Assembly (NCBI GenBank): GCA_963813715.1
Contig: CAWFAK010000007.1
Span: forward strand, 1-64,000
DNA length: 64,000 nucleotides
Source: an uncultured Planctomycetaceae bacterium
GTDB lineage: Bacteria; Planctomycetota; Planctomycetia; Planctomycetales; Planctomycetaceae
Reading direction: 5' to 3'
Shown here: one piece after another, positions 16,782 through 26,483 of the stretch
Position numbering within the stretch: position 1 is the first letter of the stretch
Layout: the number at the start of each line of letters is the position of its first letter
The notes under the pieces: generated by a model
What the model saw: the letters and a program-made list of their open reading frames with translations, nothing else
Database searches by the model: none
What the model was told of the DNA's origin: nothing
Translations under genes and position numbers: made by a program

Positions 16782-18508
16782 ACCGCGATGCGGAAATCGA
16801 GCCGGCAGCGGGAAGGTCCGATTCGGGTGCGTCGGATCGCGACGCGATGGTCCTCCGGATGCTCGACGAAGTGACGTCAGAAGCGCGCGGCGGGAAAACG
16901 CCGGACTTTGAAGCGCTCGCTCGGCGGCATCCCGACCTTGTCGACGAGGTCCGCATGCTCTGGGCGACGGCCATGGTGGCCGAGGATTTTGCCAGCGTGT
17001 CGCAGGTGCTCGATTCGGTCGAAGCGCGCCGCCAGCGCTCCCAGCCGGCCGCCTACCTTCGAGCCTCGGCAGCGCGTCGGCGATTACGAGATTCTCGAAG
17101 AGATCGGTCGCGGCGGCATGGGTGTCGTGTTCCGCGCGCGGCAGATCAGCCTCGGACGGATCGTGGCCCTCAAGATGATCCTCCGCGGCGAGCTGGCCTC
17201 CGCGGCCGATCTCACGCGGTTTCGCGGCGAGGCCGAGTCGGCCGCCCGGCTGCACCATCCGCACGTGACGGCCGTCTATGAAATCGGTGACCACGAGGGG
17301 CAGCCGTTCTTCAGCATGCAGTTCGTCGAGGGGACGACGCTCGCCCGCCGCGTCGCCGAAGGGCCGCTGCCCGCCGCGAGGCGGCGAGTCTACTGCTCCC
17401 GGTCTGTCGGGCGATTGCCGAAGCGCACCGCCAGGGTTTGTTGCACCGCGACCTCAAGCCCTCGAACATTCTCATCGATCGCACGGGCCATCCGTTCGTG
17501 AGCGATTTCGGCCTGGCCAAGCGGGTCACGGCCGACAAAGCCGACGAAGATGAGCAGACTCGCTCGCTGCTCACGCACAGCGGGGCGATCGTCGGTACCC
17601 CCGGCTACATGGCTCCCGAGCAGGCGGCCGGCAACCGCGGCGAGGTCGGCCGCGCGACCGATGTCTACGGCCTGGGCGCCCTGCTCTACGCGACGCTGAC
17701 GGGCCGCGCGCCGTTTCAGTCGGCCTCGCCCGTCGACACGGTGCTGCAAGTGCTCGAGCAGGATCCCCTCCCCCCGCGGCTGCTCAATCCGGGCGTCGAC
17801 GCCGACCTGGAGATGATCGCCCTCCGCTGCCTGCAAAAACCGGCCGAGCTGCGCTACGCGACCGCCGACGAGCTGGCCGACGACCTCGAGCGATTTCTCG
17901 CCAACGAGCCGATCGCCGCCCGCTCGTCACGATTCGACCAGGTGCTGACGCGGGCCTTTCGCGAGACACACCACGCCGTTGTCTTAGAAAACTGGGGCGT
18001 GCTCTGGATGTGGCACAGCCTCGTACTCATCGTGCTGTGCGTCGTCACGAACGCGTTTCAATGGGACGGCATCACAGCCCGCCTGCCGTACGTCGGCCTG
18101 TGGACAATCGGCCTTGGGGTGTGGGCCGTCATCTTTTGGAACCTCCGCCGCCGCAGCGGCCCGATCACGTTCGTCGAACGCCAGATCGCCCACATCTGGG
18201 CCGGCAGCGTGATCTGCAGCACGCTCCTCTTCGGCATCGAAGCCCTGCTCGACCTGCCCGTGCTCACGCTCTCGCCCGTGCTCGGCCTGGTGAGCGGCAT
18301 GGTGTTCCTGGTCAAAGCCGGCATCCTGAGCGGCGCCTTCTACATCCAAGCGGCCGCCCTCTTCGCCACGGCCGGCGCGATGGCGCTCTGGTCCCGCACG
18401 GGCCTGCCGCCGCTGGGCATCTCCCTCTTCGGCATCGTCTCCGCCGTCTGCTTCTTCGTGCCGGGCCTCAAATACTATCGACAGCAACGCTCGCGGCTCC
18501 GGGGCTAA
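16778..18508 (+). CDS. Ser/Thr protein kinase with C-terminal multi-TM domain (2 frameshifts)
   Basis: [26 protein letters not shown] and [10 protein letters not shown] motifs; about 6 TM helices. Confidence 0.9.
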
Positions 18509-19372: not shown

Positions 19373-21124
19373 TCAATACCGCCAACTCGTGAGATCCGCT
19401 CCCGGCGGGGCTGACTTGAGAATCCGTGCCAGGATCTTCGGCGCGTGCATCTGGTGGTAGCGGAGGCGGGAGAACGCGTTCGGCCGCGTGGGGTCGCCGT
19501 TCCAGCAGTGTTCCGCGCGGTCGCCGTACGCGACCTCGCCGTCGTAATGCGGGTCCTTCGTGGTTTTCAAAAACTCTTCCACGAGGTAGACGGCGTTGTT
19601 GAGGTAGTAGTTGTCCATGTCGCCGCAGTAGATGTGAATCTTGCCCTGCAGCTTCTTGCCGATTTTGGGCCAGTCGCGCTGGAGGATGTGGCCCAGGTCG
19701 TAATGCTCGCGCCAATACTCGGCGACCGAGTGGTCGATCTGGCCGGTGGCTTTGTCCCAGATCGGCTTCGGGTAGCCGTCGTCGCCCGTGGGTGAATAAA
19801 CGGCCTGCCAGATGTCCCACTGATCGCCCGAGCGCGAGTTCGTGCCCAGCACCAGCTCACGGCGATTGGAGTCTTCGAGCGTGATGCCGACTTCGCCCAA
19901 ATAGTTGCGGCTGCCCGGGCGAGGCGTTTTGGCGAACTGGCTGTCGGCGTAGTACGCGTTCTTGTGCTCGTACAAGTTGACGACCGTGTACGAGCGAAAA
20001 TCGATCGGATCGGGGCACGCCACCCAGCAGCCGTTGTATTGGTCAGGATAGAAGATCTGCACCGCCAGCGACTCCCAGCCGCCGGTCGAGCCGCCGTAGA
20101 GAAAGCGGGCCCAGCCTTCGCCGATGCAGCGAAATTGCTTTTCGACCTCGGGGACGAGCTCGTAGGTGATCGCGTCGCCGTACGGGCCGAGGTTGGCCGA
20201 GTTCACCGCGTAGGAATCGTCGTAGTACGGGTTGGCGTGCTGGATTTCGATCATCACCATCCGCGGGAAACCGGGCCCGGTCCAATCCTTGTAGAGCTGG
20301 TGGGCGTATTCCTGCTCGATCTTGTTGTAGCCGTGCAGCTTGAATCGCTTGTTGTAATCGGGCTTGAGATTGGGATCGGCCGGCGTCTCGCGAAAGCCGT
20401 CGATCGTCGCGGGAAAATGGCCGTGAAAGATCGCCAGCGGATAGCGGGCTTTGGGATGTTCCTCGAAGCCGTGGGGGAGTAGCACGCAGGCGCCGAGATG
20501 CATCGGCCGGCCCCAGAATTCCGTCAACAGCTTGCTTTGGATCTTGATGTGCTTGATGTACTTGGTGTCCTTCGGCGGCTCGATGGGGGGAATCTCCTGG
20601 TCGAGCACCAGCGTCTCGACCGCCCCGTGCTGCGGATCAAAGTGGATCTTTTTCGGCGTGCTGAAGAGATTGCCCGGCGCCTTATTCCATTGCTGCCCCT
20701 CGCCCCGATCCATCGGCAGCTTCACGGTGTGGCCGTTTTTCAGATGAAACGTTTCGTACTTGTGCAACAGCGCCTGGACCCAATACTCGCCGGCCGGCAC
20801 GTCCGCGAGACTCTTGATCGGGTAGCCCAGCACCGACCGATCGACGACGGCCGCCTCGCCCGGCTTCAATCCGTCGACATTGATGCCAAACACCAGCTGC
20901 GTGTTGGCGTCGCCCGTGATTTGAAACCGTGGCTCCTGGGCGTTGTCGGTCGAGAGCATCACCAACAGGCGACCGTCGAGCGGAGCGGCGCTTTTGGCTG
21001 CCGGGAAACTCACATGGAAACTCATTCCGGCGTCCTTCTTAGTGTCTTGAGCGTGGGAGCACTGGGAGCGGAGCGAGGCGACGCACAGCAGAATAAACGA
21101 AGAAGCAAAGCGGGTGCGCGTCAT
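19373..21124 (-). CDS. secreted alpha/beta-hydrolase (putative esterase family)
   Basis: GGSTGG nucleophile motif, YAVNSANLGPYG and GDMDNYYL; signal peptide. Confidence 0.8.
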   Translation of the reverse strand: MTRTRFASSFILLCVASLRSQCSHAQDTKKDAGMSFHVSFPAAKSAAPLDGRLLVMLSTDNAQEPRFQITGDANTQLVFGINVDGLKPGEAAVVDRSVLGYPIKSLADVPAGEYWVQALLHKYETFHLKNGHTVKLPMDRGEGQQWNKAPGNLFSTPKKIHFDPQHGAVETLVLDQEIPPIEPPKDTKYIKHIKIQSKLLTEFWGRPMHLGACVLLPHGFEEHPKARYPLAIFHGHFPATIDGFRETPADPNLKPDYNKRFKLHGYNKIEQEYAHQLYKDWTGPGFPRMVMIEIQHANPYYDDSYAVNSANLGPYGDAITYELVPEVEKQFRCIGEGWARFLYGGSTGGWESLAVQIFYPDQYNGCWVACPDPIDFRSYTVVNLYEHKNAYYADSQFAKTPRPGSRNYLGEVGITLEDSNRRELVLGTNSRSGDQWDIWQAVYSPTGDDGYPKPIWDKATGQIDHSVAEYWREHYDLGHILQRDWPKIGKKLQGKIHIYCGDMDNYYLNNAVYLVEEFLKTTKDPHYDGEVAYGDRAEHCWNGDPTRPNAFSRLRYHQMHAPKILARILKSAPPGADLTSWRY

Positions 21125-21158
21125 GAGGGGTGTCTCTGGGAGTGAGAAGCGGGCGGTA

Positions 21159-21198
21159 GGTGTGGCACGCCCTGCTAAGGGCGTGGCGGCCGTCTCGG
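21159..21198 (+). repeat. REP family A (GTGTGGCACGCCCTGCTAAGGGCGTGG)
   Basis: Hairpin CACGCCCT/AGGGCGTG; 37/40 identical to 21913-21952. Confidence 0.88.
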
Positions 21199-21234
21199 AA
21201 TTACCCTCTGTTTCGACGGTTCCGAACCTCTCGG

Positions 21235-21828
21235 TCACGAGTCGTACATCATCGGCAGCGTCGCATCGATTTGGAACGGCACTGGCCGCATTCCTGCATA
21301 CCATCGCGCACTGGACCATTCCCAGTCTGTCGCGCGTTCACACAGGCGACGCCGAACCGGGTTGTGGTGAATGTAGTCGATCATCGATTCGAGCGTCTGT
21401 TCATTGGATACGTTGCGGTCGTATCCACCTCCTGGCTGCCAAAATCGGCGACGGGTGACGTTCCCTTCAACGACTGTGATTTTCGCCAAGAAGTCTGGAG
21501 CATTGTCTTTCAGCCAGCGGATCGCCGGCCGCGCCGTCTGTTCCTTGACGAAACCAGCGAAGCGACCGAGGTCGAGTTTTGGCTCGCGTGGACTGACAAG
21601 CAAATGGACGTGCTCGGGCATCAGGACGTAAGCCCAAACATCTACGGGCCAACGTTGGCGGCCTTTCTCCAGCGCCGCGATGAACCATTCTCGCGTCCGG
21701 TCACGCTCAAGGAATCGGAACCGATGATAGCAGGAGAAAGTGAACTCTCTCGGCTCGCGATTGACTTCGTATCGCTTACGGCGTTTACGGAAGCAGGATT
21801 GCGCGGAGCTGGGATCGTGGATGCGCAT
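21235..21828 (-). CDS. REP-associated tyrosine transposase (RAYT; Y1 HUH)
   Basis: FTFSC, AYVLMPEHVHLL (HUH), FWQPG, YIHHNPV and WEWSSA motifs; flanked by REPs. Confidence 0.92.
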   Translation of the reverse strand: MRIHDPSSAQSCFRKRRKRYEVNREPREFTFSCYHRFRFLERDRTREWFIAALEKGRQRWPVDVWAYVLMPEHVHLLVSPREPKLDLGRFAGFVKEQTARPAIRWLKDNAPDFLAKITVVEGNVTRRRFWQPGGGYDRNVSNEQTLESMIDYIHHNPVRRRLCERATDWEWSSARWYAGMRPVPFQIDATLPMMYDS

Positions 21829-21912
21829 GAGGGAGGCCCCAAAGGTGCCCCCATGCTACCCAAAGTCGAACGAATCTCCCGCATGGAAAATGAAAATCAC
21901 GCGCAAGACGGC

Positions 21913-22020
21913 GGTGTGGCACGCCCTGCTAAGAGCGTGGCGCACGTCTCGGGCGCGACTTCTCAGATACATTCGCCGAACACCCACCACGCCCTTCCTG
22001 ACGTCAGGGCGTGCCACCCG
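21913..22020. repeat. inverted REP family A doublet (REPIN-like)
   Basis: + copy at 21913-21942 and - copy at 21985-22020 with an expanded loop. Confidence 0.85.
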
Positions 22021-22021
22021 A

Positions 22022-22122
22022 CCGCGACGCGGAGCGCCCGGCCACACGCCAACCCGAGAGTTGAATGGCGGAGTGGCGCAAAAGTCTGGGGGCGAACCGC
22101 AGACGGTTCGACCCGAGCCACC
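22022..22122 (-). repeat. two further REP-like palindromes (families C and B)
   Basis: Reverse complement GTGTGGCCGGGCGCTCCGCGTCGCGG (22022-22047) and GGTGGCTCGGGTCGAACCG..CGGTTCGCCCCCAG (22086-22122). Confidence 0.7.
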
Positions 22123-22185
22123 GACGCTCAGATTACCCTGGAGTTGGCGCGGGTTCCATGACAGGGCTTGGGCACGAAAGCAGGA

Positions 22186-23584
22186 TTATCTAGTCGCTGC
22201 AGAGTGGTCAGGCGGCTCCCAGGCAATCTTGTCGAAGACCTGTTGGAGTTTCGCCCCCGCTCGCGCTGCGTCATCGCCACATAGGCGATCTTTCCCTGCA
22301 GATGTTCGCGAAAACGCGGGTGGTCGCCGCGGTTTTGCGATTCCGGTCCGAAGCGACAGCAATTGTGCAACGTCGCCTTCAGCCGATCGTATTCGTCGCG
22401 TGGCACGTTGATCCGGCGGTTGACGACCAGCCCCGCGATCGATTGCTGGGCGCCCGACCGCATGACGCGCGTCTTGCGATGCCGAATCGCGAATCCCTCG
22501 TCGAGCACGATTGCGCAGACGAAGACTCGAAAGCGGTGCAGACTCCGCTCGAAATTGGAGTCGCCTGAAAAGATCAAATCGTCGGCATAGCGCGTGTAAT
22601 TCGCATCGACACTGCGTGCCAGTCCCGTCAATCGGCAGTCGAGGCGATAGGCACAGAAGTTCGCCAAAGCCGGCGACGTCGGCGCCCTTGGGGCAGATGC
22701 GGCTGGCGAAAGATCTGCCAGAGTTCGTGTCGGCGACCGGTCGCGTCGTCCGGCAGAAAGAAACTGTCGTCAACTGCGTTCGTGCAGAGCGCGGCCAGCA
22801 ACCTCGCGACTCCTTCGGGATAGCCGAGAGTATGAAACAGCGCATGAATTCGCGATTGCCGAATTCGCGGAAAAAAGTCTCGCAGGTCGATCCGCAGGAC
22901 GACGCGCTGCCCGACATGAGGCGCGGCACAAGTAATTGTCGAACGTTGCGAACGGAACGCGTGCGCGGACGGATGCGGAGGAATGACGCCCAGAATTTCG
23001 CCGAGAATCTGCCGCTGAATCTCCTTCAGCCGCGGCTTGGGGCTTTCGACGAGCCGCTGTCGTCCGCCCGACTTGGCGATCCAGCGGTAGCGATAATGCC
23101 CCAGTTTGCTGTCCGCTGCGCTCCGGCCGTATCGGCGACAACCGGCAAACCAGTCGAGCTGGCTGATGGTAATCCCCAGCCAGTCGGCCAACTCGCCGGC
23201 GGTGACGAGTCCGGGAAGCTCATCCATTCCGACGATCGCCGGCGCCGGAGCCATCTCCGGACGAGGAAGGCCGAGGACATTCGTGACCAACGTCAATTGG
23301 AACTGTTCCAACGGCTCTTGTCGCTGAGCTTTTGCGACGAGACGCTCGATGGCCCGACAAAACTTTCGATCGGCCGCGAGGAAACTCGTGAGCGCGGCGT
23401 GTCGCGGCGTCGGAGGATGCAAGCCGAACCGCGCGAGGACACGGGCAACGAGCGGATCAATCCATCGCGGGGAGCGCGACAGCTCAAAGACCTGCATCAA
23501 ACGGGCGCTGATGCCGGCGCCCGTCCAATCGCCGGCAAGCAAAGCCGTCGCTGCATCACGTGCGATGGAGACCGATGGGAGCAT
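22186..23584 (-). CDS. retron-type reverse transcriptase, ~466 aa after repairing 2 single-base deletions
   Basis: K.GG..R.VESPKPRLK..QR, AHAF, region-X-like CAAPH, DLRDFFP, LPQG(A)PTSP..AN, YTRYADDLIFS, region-Y IAGLVVN; indels in C runs at ~22685-22687 and ~22254-22258. Confidence 0.92.
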
Positions 23585-23591
23585 AAGAACG

Positions 23592-23762
23592 GGGAACGGA
23601 GCGTCTCGCGAAGACTCGTCGGGCGCGAGCAGTACTGCGCCCTCGCGCAGTGACGCTCACGCTGCGAATTGGTCAAAGTCCAGTGGGTTCGTCGGGGTAA
23701 CCCCGACAAGGCGGACACAACCGAAGGCCGGTCGAATCGCCAACCTGAGACGCCCCGCCCCC
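23592..23762 (-). ncRNA. retron msr-msd non-coding RNA
   Basis: a2 (23762-23747) pairs with a1 (23607-23592) over 16/16 nt including 3 G-U; AG follows a2; stems at 23741-23710 and 23707-23691; msd hairpin at 23662-23623. Confidence 0.85.
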
Positions 23763-23769
23763 GACATTG

Positions 23770-23799
23770 ACGCTAAGCCGGCAACCCCACGAGGGTCAA
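23770..23799 (-). promoter_or_regulatory. candidate sigma-70 promoter of the retron
   Basis: TTGACC-N18-TAGCGT, ending 7 nt before a2. Confidence 0.5.
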
Positions 23800-23857
23800 G
23801 CACCCTCTGCAGGCAACTCGTGATGCGGCCCAAAGCGTGCCACCGCACTCAGGCCAG

Positions 23858-23888
23858 GCCGCACCGGGTGCAGGGGCACGCCCCTGCT
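23858..23888 (+). repeat. 31-bp REP-like repeat, copy 1
   Basis: gccgcaccgggtgcaggggcacgcccctgct; identical to 24858-24888. Confidence 0.92.
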
Positions 23889-24633
23889 AGTTTCGGCTGC
23901 CGCCTTGCAGCTTCGACAGCAAGCGGAGGATTTCGAGGTACATCCAGACGAGCGTCACCATCAGGCTGAAGCCGCCGTACCATTCCATGTACTTGGGGGC
24001 CTGCATCTGAACGCCGCGCTCGATGAAGTCGAAGTCCAAAACCAGGTTCAGGGCCGCGATGACCACGACGACCAGGGAGAAGCCGATGCCGATATATCCC
24101 GACTCATGGATGTACGGGATGTGTGCCCCGAAAAACGAGGCGACGATGTCCACCAAATAGACCAGGCAGATGGCGCCGGTCGCCGCCACGACTCCGATTT
24201 TGAATTTCTCCGTCACGCGAATGATGCCCGTCCCGTAAACGAAGAGCATCGTGGCCAACACGCCGACGCTCAGTCCGACGGCCTTGATTGCGATACCGTG
24301 GTAGCGGGCCTCAAAGATCGCGGAAATCGCGCCCAGAACCAGCCCTTCCAGGGCGGCATAAACCGGAGCAGAAAACGGAGACGCCTTCGGCATGAAAATC
24401 GTCAACAGCGCCGTGGCGAATCCGCCGATCGAGCCAACCATCAGCAGCCCGTACGTGAGCGGCGACCCGGCCATTGCCTGAAACCACGTGTAGACGGCCG
24501 TGGCCATCAGGATCATGAGCAGGCCGGCCGTCTTCACCACCGTCCCCTCGAGCGTCATCACCGAGCTCGATTCGAACGCGCGCCCGGCCCGATCGTAAAC
24601 CGCAGTGTTCATCGCCGGATTGGCGGTCGCCAT
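23887..24633 (-). CDS. Bax inhibitor-1/YccA family membrane protein
   Basis: MTLEGTVVKT, PVYAALEGLVLG, NLVLDFDFIE..V...APKYMEWY..FSLMVTLVWMYLEILRLL; about 7 TM. Confidence 0.9.
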   Translation of the reverse strand: MATANPAMNTAVYDRAGRAFESSSVMTLEGTVVKTAGLLMILMATAVYTWFQAMAGSPLTYGLLMVGSIGGFATALLTIFMPKASPFSAPVYAALEGLVLGAISAIFEARYHGIAIKAVGLSVGVLATMLFVYGTGIIRVTEKFKIGVVAATGAICLVYLVDIVASFFGAHIPYIHESGYIGIGFSLVVVVIAALNLVLDFDFIERGVQMQAPKYMEWYGGFSLMVTLVWMYLEILRLLSKLQGGSRN

Positions 24634-24745
24634 AGCTCGTTCTCCGTGGGATTTTCAACAAGTCAACGGTCAGATTAACCAACGCGGCAGCGGAACGGCA
24701 ACGTGGGGTCAAGCGGTCAGGCGAACCACCCAGTCGGTGGTCACC

Positions 24746-24780
24746 CTGGGGGCGGCGAAAACGCCGACCCCAGCCACCCG
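24746..24780 (-). repeat. REP family B palindrome
   Basis: Reverse complement CGGGTGGCTGGGGTCGGCGTTTTCGCCGCCCCCAG; related to 22086-22122. Confidence 0.75.
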
Positions 24781-24841
24781 ACGCCCATCGTCCAGAGCTC
24801 AGCCGCACGCAGAGTCAGCGTGAAGCGGCAAAAGCGCTCCA

Positions 24842-25276
24842 TCAAGCGTCCGGATCAGCCGCACCGGGTGCAGGGGCACGCCCCTGCTGGTGGAATTCGG
24901 GCCAGCGTTGCCAGGCGTAGGTCCACTCCATCCACAGCCGCATCACCGACCAGAGCAGACGCATCCGCGCCAGATGTTCCTGCGGCAGACGCTGCTTGTT
25001 GGCGAACGATTCGCGGGCCGCGTCGGCCAGGTTCCATTGCTCGGCCAGGCTGCGGCAGACGGAATCGGGGGTGAGGTCGTTTTCGGGCGGTTCGCCGGGC
25101 TTGGGTTCTTTCAGCAGATCGGCCCCGTCGGCCATCACAAACAGCTCGAATAGACGGCTGCGGAGCGGATCGAGCTCGAGCGGACGCTGTGTTTCTTCGG
25201 CTTCGCGGACGAGCAGGTCGATCTGCGACAGAATGCTTTTGGCCAGCGACGGCTCGATCGAAGTGGGCACCGACAT
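24842..25276 (-). CDS. conserved-looking hypothetical protein
   Basis: GAGGAGG RBS; LFELFV...LWSVMRLWMEWTYAWQRWPEF; 3' end formed by a repeat. Confidence 0.7.
   Translation of the reverse strand: MSVPTSIEPSLAKSILSQIDLLVREAEETQRPLELDPLRSRLFELFVMADGADLLKEPKPGEPPENDLTPDSVCRSLAEQWNLADAARESFANKQRLPQEHLARMRLLWSVMRLWMEWTYAWQRWPEFHQQGRAPAPGAADPDA
24858..24888 (+). repeat. 31-bp REP-like repeat, copy 2
   Basis: Identical to 23858-23888; lies in the last codons of the 24842-25276 CDS. Confidence 0.92.
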
Positions 25277-25372
25277 GTCAGCCTCCTCAGCCCTCCATCT
25301 TAAGCTTCGAAACAAAGCGAGGACAGGCCCTGGCAGAGCCCGTCCCCGCTTTTTGTCAGCTGAAACTTGCGA

Positions 25373-26483
25373 TTACGGAGTGGCGATTCCGCCGGCGGTG
25401 GACCACGCCGAGTGCGGGAACAGGAAGTAGACGCCGGCAATTGAGCCGGCTTCCACGGCGGCCGCCTCGGTGTTCCACGGAATCTGATAGAAGAGCTTCG
25501 GAGCACATTCGCCCGGGCGATAGAAACCGAGAGGATAGACTCGGCAACAGCAGGGATCGATCGTCATCTGGTACGGGATGCCGATGGACTGCACGGTGAA
25601 TCGCAGGGACGACACGATCGGCTGGATGAAGAACGGCCACGCGTGACCGTAACGCTCCAGGTCCGGATCCTCGAAGTACAGCGGCTGATAGAAGACGTTC
25701 GAGGCCTGCCACGTGTAGGTGCTGGCCGGGAAGACGCGCGGCTCAAACGGCCCATTCGAGAGCTGGACTTCGTTCGGACACTCGGGCCCCTTCCCGTCGG
25801 CGGTCTTGCAAGGCGCGCCGTCCGGACGCGGGCACAAGTTCTGGCACGGATCCTCGGCCGCCACTTTCGGATCCGGCTCGTAATCCAAAAAGGGCATGAT
25901 CTGCGTTACTTTCGGCAGCTGGCTGGGCGTTTTCGACCTGCTCGGCTTCCGGCAGATTATCGGGAATCACACCCGGGCGGGCGGTGCTCGAGTTGAACCG
26001 ACCGGAGAACGGCAGACGCTGACTCGCCTGGGCCATGTACGCGCCGTTGGCGGCCGGTGCCATGTAGGCACCGTTGGTAGCGGGCGTCGGGTAGACGCCG
26101 TTCGGCTGCGGCGCGGGCACCATCTGCGGACGATAGCCGTTGGCCGTTTGCGTGGCGGCAGGCGAAAGGTCCATCGGCTGCTGTGGGCTGGCGACCGGCT
26201 GTTGCGCGTAGCCGGCGTACTGCGGCGTGCCCATCGTCCCCTGAGCGGCAGCCGCCTGCATTTGCTGATTGCGCTGTGCCCAGCGGGTATTCGCGGGAGC
26301 GGCGGCCGGAGCCGGCGGGACATCGCCCGTCGGGAAGTTGGCTGTCACCGCGGGGTCAGCGGCGGCCGGCAGGGGCAGTTGGAACTGTTCGTCGCCGGCA
26401 CGCAGCCCGGTAAGGTCGGCCGCCAGCAACAAAGCCGCGGCCGCTCCGCCCAGCAGCCGGCTAGCCGACTTCGACCGGAGCAT
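25373..26483 (-). CDS. secreted hypothetical protein with PLYFED..LERYG motif (frameshift ~25900)
   Basis: Signal peptide, Pro/Ala/Gln-rich linker, C-terminal [16 protein letters not shown]...[11 protein letters not shown]. Confidence 0.65.

Follow-up and report, generated by a model that had tools for sequence, protein, structure and literature searches.

A probable msr-msd RNA of a stand-alone retron in an uncultured planctomycete, supported by covariation across its relatives

Introduction

In the classification of Mestre et al. (2020), retron reverse transcriptases (RTs) are distributed over 11 clades, and msr-msd structures are described for eight of them, clade 11 included (PMC7736814). 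The same work describes stand-alone cassettes, consisting of the msr-msd and the RT, in a branch of clade 2 and in clade 11, considers them possibly domesticated, and gives two or three consensus structures of the non-coding RNA (ncRNA) for clade 11 (PMC7736814). The more recent SPIRE 2026 survey, which uses the two clade-11 ncRNA models of Mestre et al. under the names OutgroupA and OutgroupB, finds clade11-A enriched in Pseudomonadota, Actinomycetota, Acidobacteriota and Bryobacterales, and its low-confidence clade11-B candidates concentrated in Planctomycetota; for both of them it lists no recurrent accessory gene, and both are rated low in novelty (PMC13712802). On the experimental side, the census of Khan et al. 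tested retrons of each RT clade (10.1101/2024.01.25.577267). The element studied here is a candidate retron of the stand-alone kind, located on the minus strand of a contig from an uncultured Planctomycetaceae bacterium (CAWFAK010000007.1, assembly GCA_963813715.1), whose positions 1 to 64,000 on the forward strand constitute the window, i.e., the whole stretch of DNA that was analysed.

An initial annotation of this window, made from the letters and a list of open reading frames (ORFs), had proposed that a predictable msr-msd with a branch guanosine precedes an RT gene and templates a multicopy single-stranded DNA (msDNA). The RNA, its relatives, the RT and the surroundings of both are described below, followed by the alternatives that have to be weighed.

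Results

Architecture of the ncRNA

The whole ncRNA extends over 23590-23765 on the minus strand, directly 5' of an RT gene (22186-23584, minus strand) whose ATG lies at 23584-23582. It was delimited with a covariance model, R1, built from a MAFFT/RNAalifold alignment of the window and 50 related loci, which matches here with 110.3 bits and an expect (E) value of 1.6e-18; this is the sole match of R1 in the 64-kb window, and one of only two in the whole genome (7.5 Mb). The RNA is closed by a stem whose 5' arm, a2 (23747-23762), pairs with its 3' arm, a1 (23592-23607), at 16 of 16 positions, three of them through G-U pairs (G23759-U23595, G23758-U23596 and G23754-U23600) that would become A-C mismatches on the opposite strand. 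Immediately 3' of a2 come A23746, G23745 and G23744, the latter two (23744-23745) being the candidates for the priming (branch) guanosine. The next element is msr hairpin 1 (23710-23741), which is irregular and varies in sequence and length across the family, followed by msr hairpin 2 (23691-23707, GUCGGGG-UUA-CCCCGAC), the most conserved element of the RNA, with a GGG-YUA-CCC core. After a linker between msr and msd (23663-23690), whose position makes it the probable place where reverse transcription stops, the msd hairpin (23623-23662) begins with a lower stem of 8 bp (23662-23655 with 23630-23623) and, beyond a 3x3 internal loop, continues into an upper stem of 7 bp (23651-23645 with 23640-23634) capped by a 4-nt loop, GAGG. 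The 3' linker of the msd (23608-23622) contains the probable first templating base (G23609 or C23608), and 7 nt separate the end of a1 (23592) from the ATG. The pairing of a2 with a1 and its three G-U pairs on the RT-sense strand, the stem at 23741-23710, msr hairpin 2, the msd hairpin and the 7-nt gap are all found where the initial annotation had placed them, and the plus strand from 23608 reads as it was given there.

When the 176 nt of 23590-23765(-) were folded with RNAfold, a free energy of -96.8 kcal/mol was obtained (z = -4.94, with 0 of 200 shuffled sequences as stable), and the centroid structure contains exactly four helices: a2/a1, the two msr hairpins and the msd hairpin. The closing stem was also evaluated separately, by counting gapless stems of at least 16 bp (G-U allowed) with arms 100-300 nt apart in the window and in 20 dinucleotide shuffles of one strand. 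There are 6 such stems on the minus and 3 on the plus strand of the window, whereas the shuffles average 2.0 (range 0-6), so that the a2/a1 stem is not significant by itself. What lies beyond chance is its position beside a retron-type RT, together with the covariation across the family.

Covariation across related loci

Relatives were searched for in one genome per species, which yielded 598 candidate stretches, 594 of them confirmed; the counts out of 80 given hereafter refer to the best 80 loci, whose hosts belong to the Planctomycetota, Acidobacteriota, Pseudomonadota, Actinomycetota, Myxococcota and Verrucomicrobiota. A plain inverted-repeat search already found, in most of these loci, a repeat of 12-19 bp that spans about 160-175 nt and ends 5-20 nt before the RT start, with arms whose sequences change from locus to locus while their complementarity is kept. 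R1 matches 77 of the 80 loci (27 of them outside the seed), once in each, always on the RT strand and immediately 5' of the RT; two of the three loci that it misses lack upstream DNA (L030 and L070), and the third (L077) gives no match at E <= 0.01.

The consensus structure, obtained with RNAalifold from a MAFFT alignment of the window and 50 of the 80 loci, comprises 32 pairs, with compensatory changes in 28. Pairing and covariation were then quantified on 78 R1 matches, in an alignment that is fitted to R1 and leans to its structure; the independent MAFFT/RNAalifold consensus agrees with the outcome. In these 78 sequences, 95.9% of the cells are paired (a value that 0 of 500 shuffles reach), versus 74.4% in shuffled alignments and 43-47% when the partners are slid by 1-3 columns, and the covariation score is 0.579, versus 0.170. 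RNAfold and covariation in homologues were the two computational checks suggested in the initial annotation, and both agree with the fold that it described.

The signal is spread over the whole fold. The 13 modelled a2/a1 pairs all show compensatory changes, with helices 1 and 2 paired in 93.7% and 96.5% of cells, respectively, and so do the 11 modelled pairs of the msd (helices 4 and 5, 93.6% and 97.9%). Helix 3, which corresponds to msr hairpin 2, reaches 99.0%, with three invariant G-C pairs around the YUA loop and four compensatory ones; it also retains in 67 of 77 loci a U-G pair that works on one strand only, which fixes the strand of the RNA. The variable msr hairpin 1 was left outside the consensus model and folded sequence by sequence: its equivalent is a single hairpin in 77 of 77 loci, with at least 8 pairs in 72 and z < -2 in 65. 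A fold closed by a2/a1, with two msr hairpins and one msd hairpin, is shown by this covariation, and the RNA at 23590-23765(-) is very probably the msr-msd partner of the retron. By analogy with other retrons, msr hairpin 2 would likely be the candidate site for recognition by the RT.

The junction and the priming guanosine

In most of the family a2 ends in CCAA and is followed by G (in 69 of 78 sequences), while a1 starts with TTGG and is preceded by an opposing G (in 76 of 78). Such a pair fits the available descriptions of retrons, according to which the transcripts carry “two opposing G residues” (PMC7736814, Figure 2 legend), and G is the most frequent base both at the branch and at the first position copied (10.1101/2024.01.25.577267). 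In the subgroup to which the window belongs, the 5' side instead reads (A/U)(G/C)G and the 3' side CGC. The G column of the family aligns with G23744, which is also G in 8 of 8 close relatives, whereas in the column of G23745 63 of the 78 sequences have A and, among the eight aligned relatives, L087 (an orthologue from a sister species) has C and two others have A. Both guanosines lie opposite G23609, which G23745 faces across an A-C mismatch. Based on the alignment columns and the close relatives, the priming base is probably G23744 rather than G23745, and the first copied base is probably G23609 or C23608. Regarding the branch, the initial annotation was right in that AG directly follows a2 and that a G lies at the junction, although its choice of G23745 is probably one base off. 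Its start of the msDNA near 23608 agrees with the present assignment within one base, and its length of 70-85 nt compares with about 55-82 nt here, both lengths being inferred.

Candidate promoter and transcripts

A -10-like hexamer, TAGCGT (23770-23775, minus strand), lies 18 nt downstream of a -35-like hexamer, TTGACC (23794-23799, minus strand), and predicts a start at about 23763-23762, i.e., at the 5' end of a2. This putative ncRNA promoter is proposed on positional enrichment across loci and not on a consensus scan: in 62 of 76 loci a TANNNT motif begins 16-12 nt 5' of the first a2 pair in the model, and it is present within -22 to -5 in 65 of 76, whereas seven equally sized control windows located further upstream contain it in 2-7 of 76. 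TTGAC starts 33-40 nt 5' of a2 in 19 of these 76 loci. The -10 box at a fixed distance, the RNA at 77 of 80 RT loci and the compensatory changes at 28 of 32 pairs together bear out the msr-msd architecture that had been predicted from the window.

Contigs from RNA libraries of two studies span from 23588/23590 to past 23900, ending at 23590 and 23588, just after a1, and another RNA contig bridges this site. As the 3' end of the ncRNA these ends are a weak hint, since contigs cannot show RNA ends; metatranscriptome contigs show only the presence of a region in RNA libraries, and gaps in their cover of the RT carry no meaning. In the linker between msr and msd, RNA-library contigs (runs X15 and X16) have one extra base at 23687 that the DNA runs X1 and X2 do not have, which is strain variation in an unpaired region.

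The reverse transcriptase

The RT gene was located by tblastn with P0001, an intact homologue of 466 aa, and by the PADLOC model RT_other; when whole, it would encode about 466 aa. For the two RT pieces that were compared with PADLOC, the best models are RT_other (6.7e-71 and 6.4e-62), RT_outgroup (1.2e-64 and 6e-59) and RT_XIII (1.2e-44 and 2.3e-42), and the best 25 families listed for each piece are all retron RT models. Of 8000 candidates scored in a homology search, 1576 proteins had E <= 0.001; the best of them are almost all 430-470 aa long, and many are labelled Planctomycetota. The top match is P0001, 95% identical. No variation is seen among 95 homologues in the YADD motif, in the H of region X or in the G of region Y; H and G are reported as the most conserved residues of these two regions (PMC7736814).

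The structure was predicted with AlphaFold for P0001, using the 95 homologues as input, and has a mean predicted local distance difference test score (pLDDT) of 91.6 and no extra C-terminal domain. Its best fold match in the PDB is Ec86 (7v9x_A, E 9.8e-23; template modelling (TM) score 0.80-0.83 together with 7v9u_A; 26-27% identity), followed by Eco2, Eco7, Ec78, Ec83 and Eco8; the 17 top-ranked structures are all retron RTs, and the enzymes of group II introns, defence-associated RTs (DRTs) and diversity-generating retroelements (DGRs) rank under them. From its sequence and modelled fold, the gene product is identified as a retron-type RT.

At its N-terminus, this RT is extended by about 160 residues, in which the model predicts a five-helix domain (residues 3-89) that a disordered linker joins to a small helical unit ahead of the fingers. 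The N-terminal domain (residues 1-122; window 23584-23219, minus strand) is conserved in the family, with near-invariant A12, G18, R28 and W41, and has no Pfam, NCBIfam or PADLOC family of its own. In structure searches, the best ESM Atlas value (0.80) was below the meaningful level, the best Foldseek match against the PDB had an E value of 2.4, and the best Z of VIA-align against 48,161 chains (5.5) was within the noise of helical bundles. The lack of a match in these searches does not make the fold of the domain new.

Neighbourhood, distribution and selection

When the ORFs of at least 90 aa within 3.5 kb of the RT were clustered over the 80 loci, no neighbour gene besides the RT and the ORFs that overlap it was common to more than 4 of them. 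In the window, the RT is flanked by genes for a REP-associated tyrosine transposase (RAYT; 21235-21828, NCBIfam 89 bits with a cut-off of 80), an esterase-like protein and a membrane protein of the BaxI family (23887-24633), and by a 157-aa ORF that matches no family, and the flanking ORFs gave no PADLOC matches. No effector gene accompanies the retron cassette, which is therefore stand-alone.

The distribution of the RNA was surveyed with R1 in 41 genomes including the window's own, of which 18 are matched: each of the 11 other genomes of the genus has at least one match, as do 5 of 13 genomes from other genera of the family and 1 of 16 from other families of the class. Orthologues of the retron were compared in four sister genomes, in which the RT is intact over residues 1-465, 8-465, 15-466 and 1-456, its ratio of nonsynonymous to synonymous substitution rates (dN/dS) is 0.15-0.20 with dS of 0.5-1.1, and the ncRNA is 81-96% identical to that of the window; in two of the four, BaxI is also found upstream of the retron. 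Judging from these comparisons, RNA and RT are both under purifying selection, and the retron looks vertically inherited within the genus.

The genome carries a second retron of the same family on contig C12, with its ncRNA at C12:266072-266246(+) (locus L082:1501-1675; 52.6 bits). It differs in a1 and a2, has the classical junction, CACAA-G / G-TTGTG, and a longer msd, and shares with the window the GGGG-UUA-CCCC hairpin and a similar promoter layout (TTGACC / TAGGAT upstream). Its RT paralogue, 45% identical, lies downstream of the ncRNA and is frame-split in the assembly.

Two further features were observed around the BaxI gene. A REP-like (repetitive extragenic palindrome) element of 33 nt with an 8-bp G/C-rich hairpin lies on both sides of it (23855-23887 and 24858-24887); this hairpin pattern has 15 copies in the genome, and the 33-mer recurs in several unrelated soil contigs with flanks that differ on both sides. 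In the intergenic stretch upstream of the gene, at 24710-24775(-), there is a weak, sub-threshold match to the Rfam family naRNA4 (26.1 bits with a gathering score of 59.5, E 0.13), which is probably just a GC-rich hairpin.

Discussion

Proposed mechanism and what weighs against it

Taken as a whole, the locus is likely to be a stand-alone retron msr-msd with msDNA synthesis, in which an assembly error is behind the breaks in the frame of the RT. The ncRNA would be transcribed from its own promoter (TTGACC, 18 nt, TAGCGT), starting at about the first base of a2, as suggested by the -10 box of the family, and would then fold into the closing stem, two msr hairpins and one msd hairpin that the covariation supports. 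By analogy with other retrons, the RT would bind the invariant GGG-YUA-CCC hairpin, and the 2'-OH of the junction G (G23744 being likelier than G23745) would prime the synthesis of complementary DNA (cDNA). This synthesis would begin at G23609/C23608, proceed through the msd hairpin and stop in the linker at 23663-23690, termination being described by Khan et al. as typically occurring before an AT-rich stretch (10.1101/2024.01.25.577267). The product would be a branched msDNA of about 55-82 nt.

There are several points that weigh against this explanation. Every step of the mechanism beyond the folding of the RNA rests on analogy. A search of 21000-26000 with Rfam 15 at permissive thresholds gave 9 weak matches and none at the ncRNA, a scan for consensus promoters and terminators over 23500-23950 found none, and the predicted msDNA, when folded as DNA, has no unusual stability (z = -1.38, with 25 of 200 shuffles as stable). 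The window has C at the column of the family's opposing G, the G of its subgroup being one column later, at 23609; the bases before the junction G are not the TTA that has been reported as common, and, with the subgroup departing in this way from the family norm at the junction, the assignment of the priming site is tentative. In the protein, region X reads CAAPH instead of NAxxH, in which A and H are preserved, and region Y has IAG in place of VTG, the NCBIfam retron models score far under their cut-offs (e.g., St85 with 81.9 bits versus 235), and Pfam RVT_1 reaches 25.9 and 17.1 bits in the two RT pieces, with a cut-off of 29.6. Finally, the RT of the window reads in three frames (tblastn with P0001 residues 1-300, 301-444 and 423-466) and, as given, cannot be translated whole due to two missing bases.

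Frame breaks and the possibility of a dead copy

These two interruptions of the RT reading frame, on which the initial annotation was silent, raise the main alternative, namely that the retron is the same but dead in this strain, with both deletions real and neither RT nor msDNA made from this copy. The first RT ORF starts at 23584 and has 318 aa, stopping soon after ...HLPQG; the second frame covers ANFCAYRLD...RYADDL, and the third one the C-terminus. Alignment with P0001 places one missing base after QG (22685/22686) and the other after RERG (22254/22255), so that the sequence as given does have the RT in three frames, and the RT of the second retron on contig C12 is split too. In both cases, the base missing from the coding strand is the C of a GGCGCG context. 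A systematic deletion in GGCGCG was considered and rejected, as the genome contains 12,975 copies of this hexamer with no depletion compared with other G/C hexamers; this means that there is no sign of a motif-wide systematic error, which speaks in favour of real deletions, and the shared context could reflect a base-calling error that depends on context, or a coincidence.

Against a dead copy stands, in the first place, the quality of the assembly itself: the essential rpoB is in 4 frame pieces and rpoC in at least 4 (C9:452772-460787), the frame of a Ser/Thr kinase gene in the window shifts near 17365, after ...EGPLPA, and the completeness of the genome is merely 82.6% for 18 contigs. In the second place, contigs from soil metagenomes and metatranscriptomes, 97-98% identical to the window, carry the extra base at both sites (at 22254 in three runs, X1, X2 and X15, and at 22685 in two, X2 and X16), which restores QG|APTSP and RERG|AKLQ, and one soil DNA contig that covers 22125-23887 differs from the window by 41 substitutions, with no gaps other than these 2. 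Once the two indels are set aside, the window RT shares 95-98% identity with the intact P0001, and its correct frames contain no stops; the intact RT of the four sister species is, as mentioned, under purifying selection. Given that rpoB and rpoC are also split and that close relatives carry both bases, the frame breaks are almost certainly assembly errors and not gene decay, and a dead copy is improbable. If both deletions were real, the element would be a dead copy and yet the same kind of element. The case also serves as a practical warning, in the sense that an apparent “pseudogene” in this indel-rich genome needs reads before it is believed.

A leader or regulatory RNA

A second alternative would be that the conserved RNA is a cis-acting leader, or a regulatory RNA that binds the RT, without being reverse transcribed, or that it is used in some non-canonical way. 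The location of a1, ending 7 nt before the ATG, means that the RNA could control the translation of the RT; furthermore, the msd hairpin is short, the junction is off the usual pattern, and there is no effector that would need to be restrained by msDNA. From the census of Khan et al. it can be added that clades 3 and 4 gave almost no RT-DNA (reverse-transcribed DNA) in E. coli, but the same source reports intermediate RT-DNA for clades besides 2, 9, 10, 3 and 4 (10.1101/2024.01.25.577267). Nonetheless, the closing inverted repeat, the junction G, the opposing G and the msr and msd hairpins are all present and covary, and they accompany an RT with a retron fold and an intact catalytic YADD, which makes this alternative slightly less probable still than a dead copy. 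As for the 16-bp inverted repeat being a product of chance in GC-rich DNA, or part of a REP or of a miniature inverted-repeat transposable element (MITE) that merely lies beside the RT gene, the comparable stems of the window (6 and 3, with a shuffle mean of 2.0) and the nearby REP-like hairpins and RAYT gene are what can be said for it, and it is hardly credible given that R1 matches one place in 64 kb and two in 7.5 Mb, both immediately 5' of RT genes, that 77 of 80 RT loci carry the RNA at the matching place and strand with arms that vary and stay complementary, that the conserved U-G and the three G-U pairs function on one strand only, and that the independent MAFFT/RNAalifold result argues against an artefact of model fitting.

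Significance

With a retron msr-msd as the preferred reading, the absence of an effector raises a further possibility: is such a retron domesticated? Either its msDNA would have a host function other than abortive infection, or the N-terminal five-helix domain would itself be the sensor or effector. This is suggested by the lack of a toxin partner, the presence of the retron in every sampled genome of the genus, the purifying selection on the RT and the partly conserved chromosomal site, and it is regarded as a tentative idea, with the odds rather against it. The role of effector-less retrons is a question for retron biology, and it concerns here a lineage that is widespread (594 confirmed loci), conserved in the genus and endowed with an unexplained N-terminal domain.

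Both the retron lineage and the ncRNA families that belong to it have already been published (PMC7736814, PMC13712802), so that the find is sound but ordinary. Its interest lies in that it shows a retron ncRNA to be recognisable from sequence alone by a reader without tools, and in that it provides a covariation-backed RNA model for a stand-alone retron lineage with little experimental study.

Comparison with known retrons

The best structural match of the RT is that of Retron-Eco1 (Ec86, type II-A3), with which the RNA also shares its overall plan. Ec86 has a nucleoside deoxyribosyltransferase-like effector and an RT of about 310 aa without N-terminal domain, unlike the present RT, with its five-helix N-terminal domain that has no fold match in the PDB. 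Type XIII (RT clade 10: Mx162, Mx65, Ne144 and Sa163) is similar in its msr-msd closed by a1 and a2, in that RT_XIII is the third-best PADLOC model, and in that its RTs are N-terminally extended. RT_XIII aligns from residue 121 on, the first 120 residues of the present RT being unshared, and the msd is short here. Vertical inheritance of type XIII has been reported in myxobacteria, and the type is defined by a SWIM/winged-helix protein with HEAT/ARM-repeat partners (PMC7736814, Table 1 for the latter). Membership in type XIII was rejected, as there is no SWIM/winged-helix or HEAT/ARM neighbour at this locus and no neighbour is conserved over the 80 loci, and the tripartite types I-XIII were likewise rejected, there being no associated effector gene or fused effector domain.

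Among the stand-alone retrons, those of the Ec107-like branch of clade 2 have the same effector-less msr-msd-RT cassette (PMC7736814), but the PADLOC match to RT_Ec107-like is far weaker (2.6e-24), and that lineage is mostly found in host-associated Bacillota, according to SPIRE (PMC13712802). The stand-alone retrons of clade 11 are closer: the best RT models are RT_other and RT_outgroup, the ncRNA lies directly upstream of the RT, there is no effector, and there are signs of vertical inheritance. What distinguishes the planctomycete subgroup of the window is its xGG/CGC junction, in place of the CCAA-G/G-TTGG of most of the family found here. The host range described for clade 11, with Acidobacteriota/Bryobacterales, Pseudomonadota, Actinomycetota and Planctomycetota (PMC13712802), matches that of the best 80 loci. 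Based on the names of the RT models, the layout and the host range, the retron would correspond to clade 11, and its RNA family would presumably be one of the A and B families described there.

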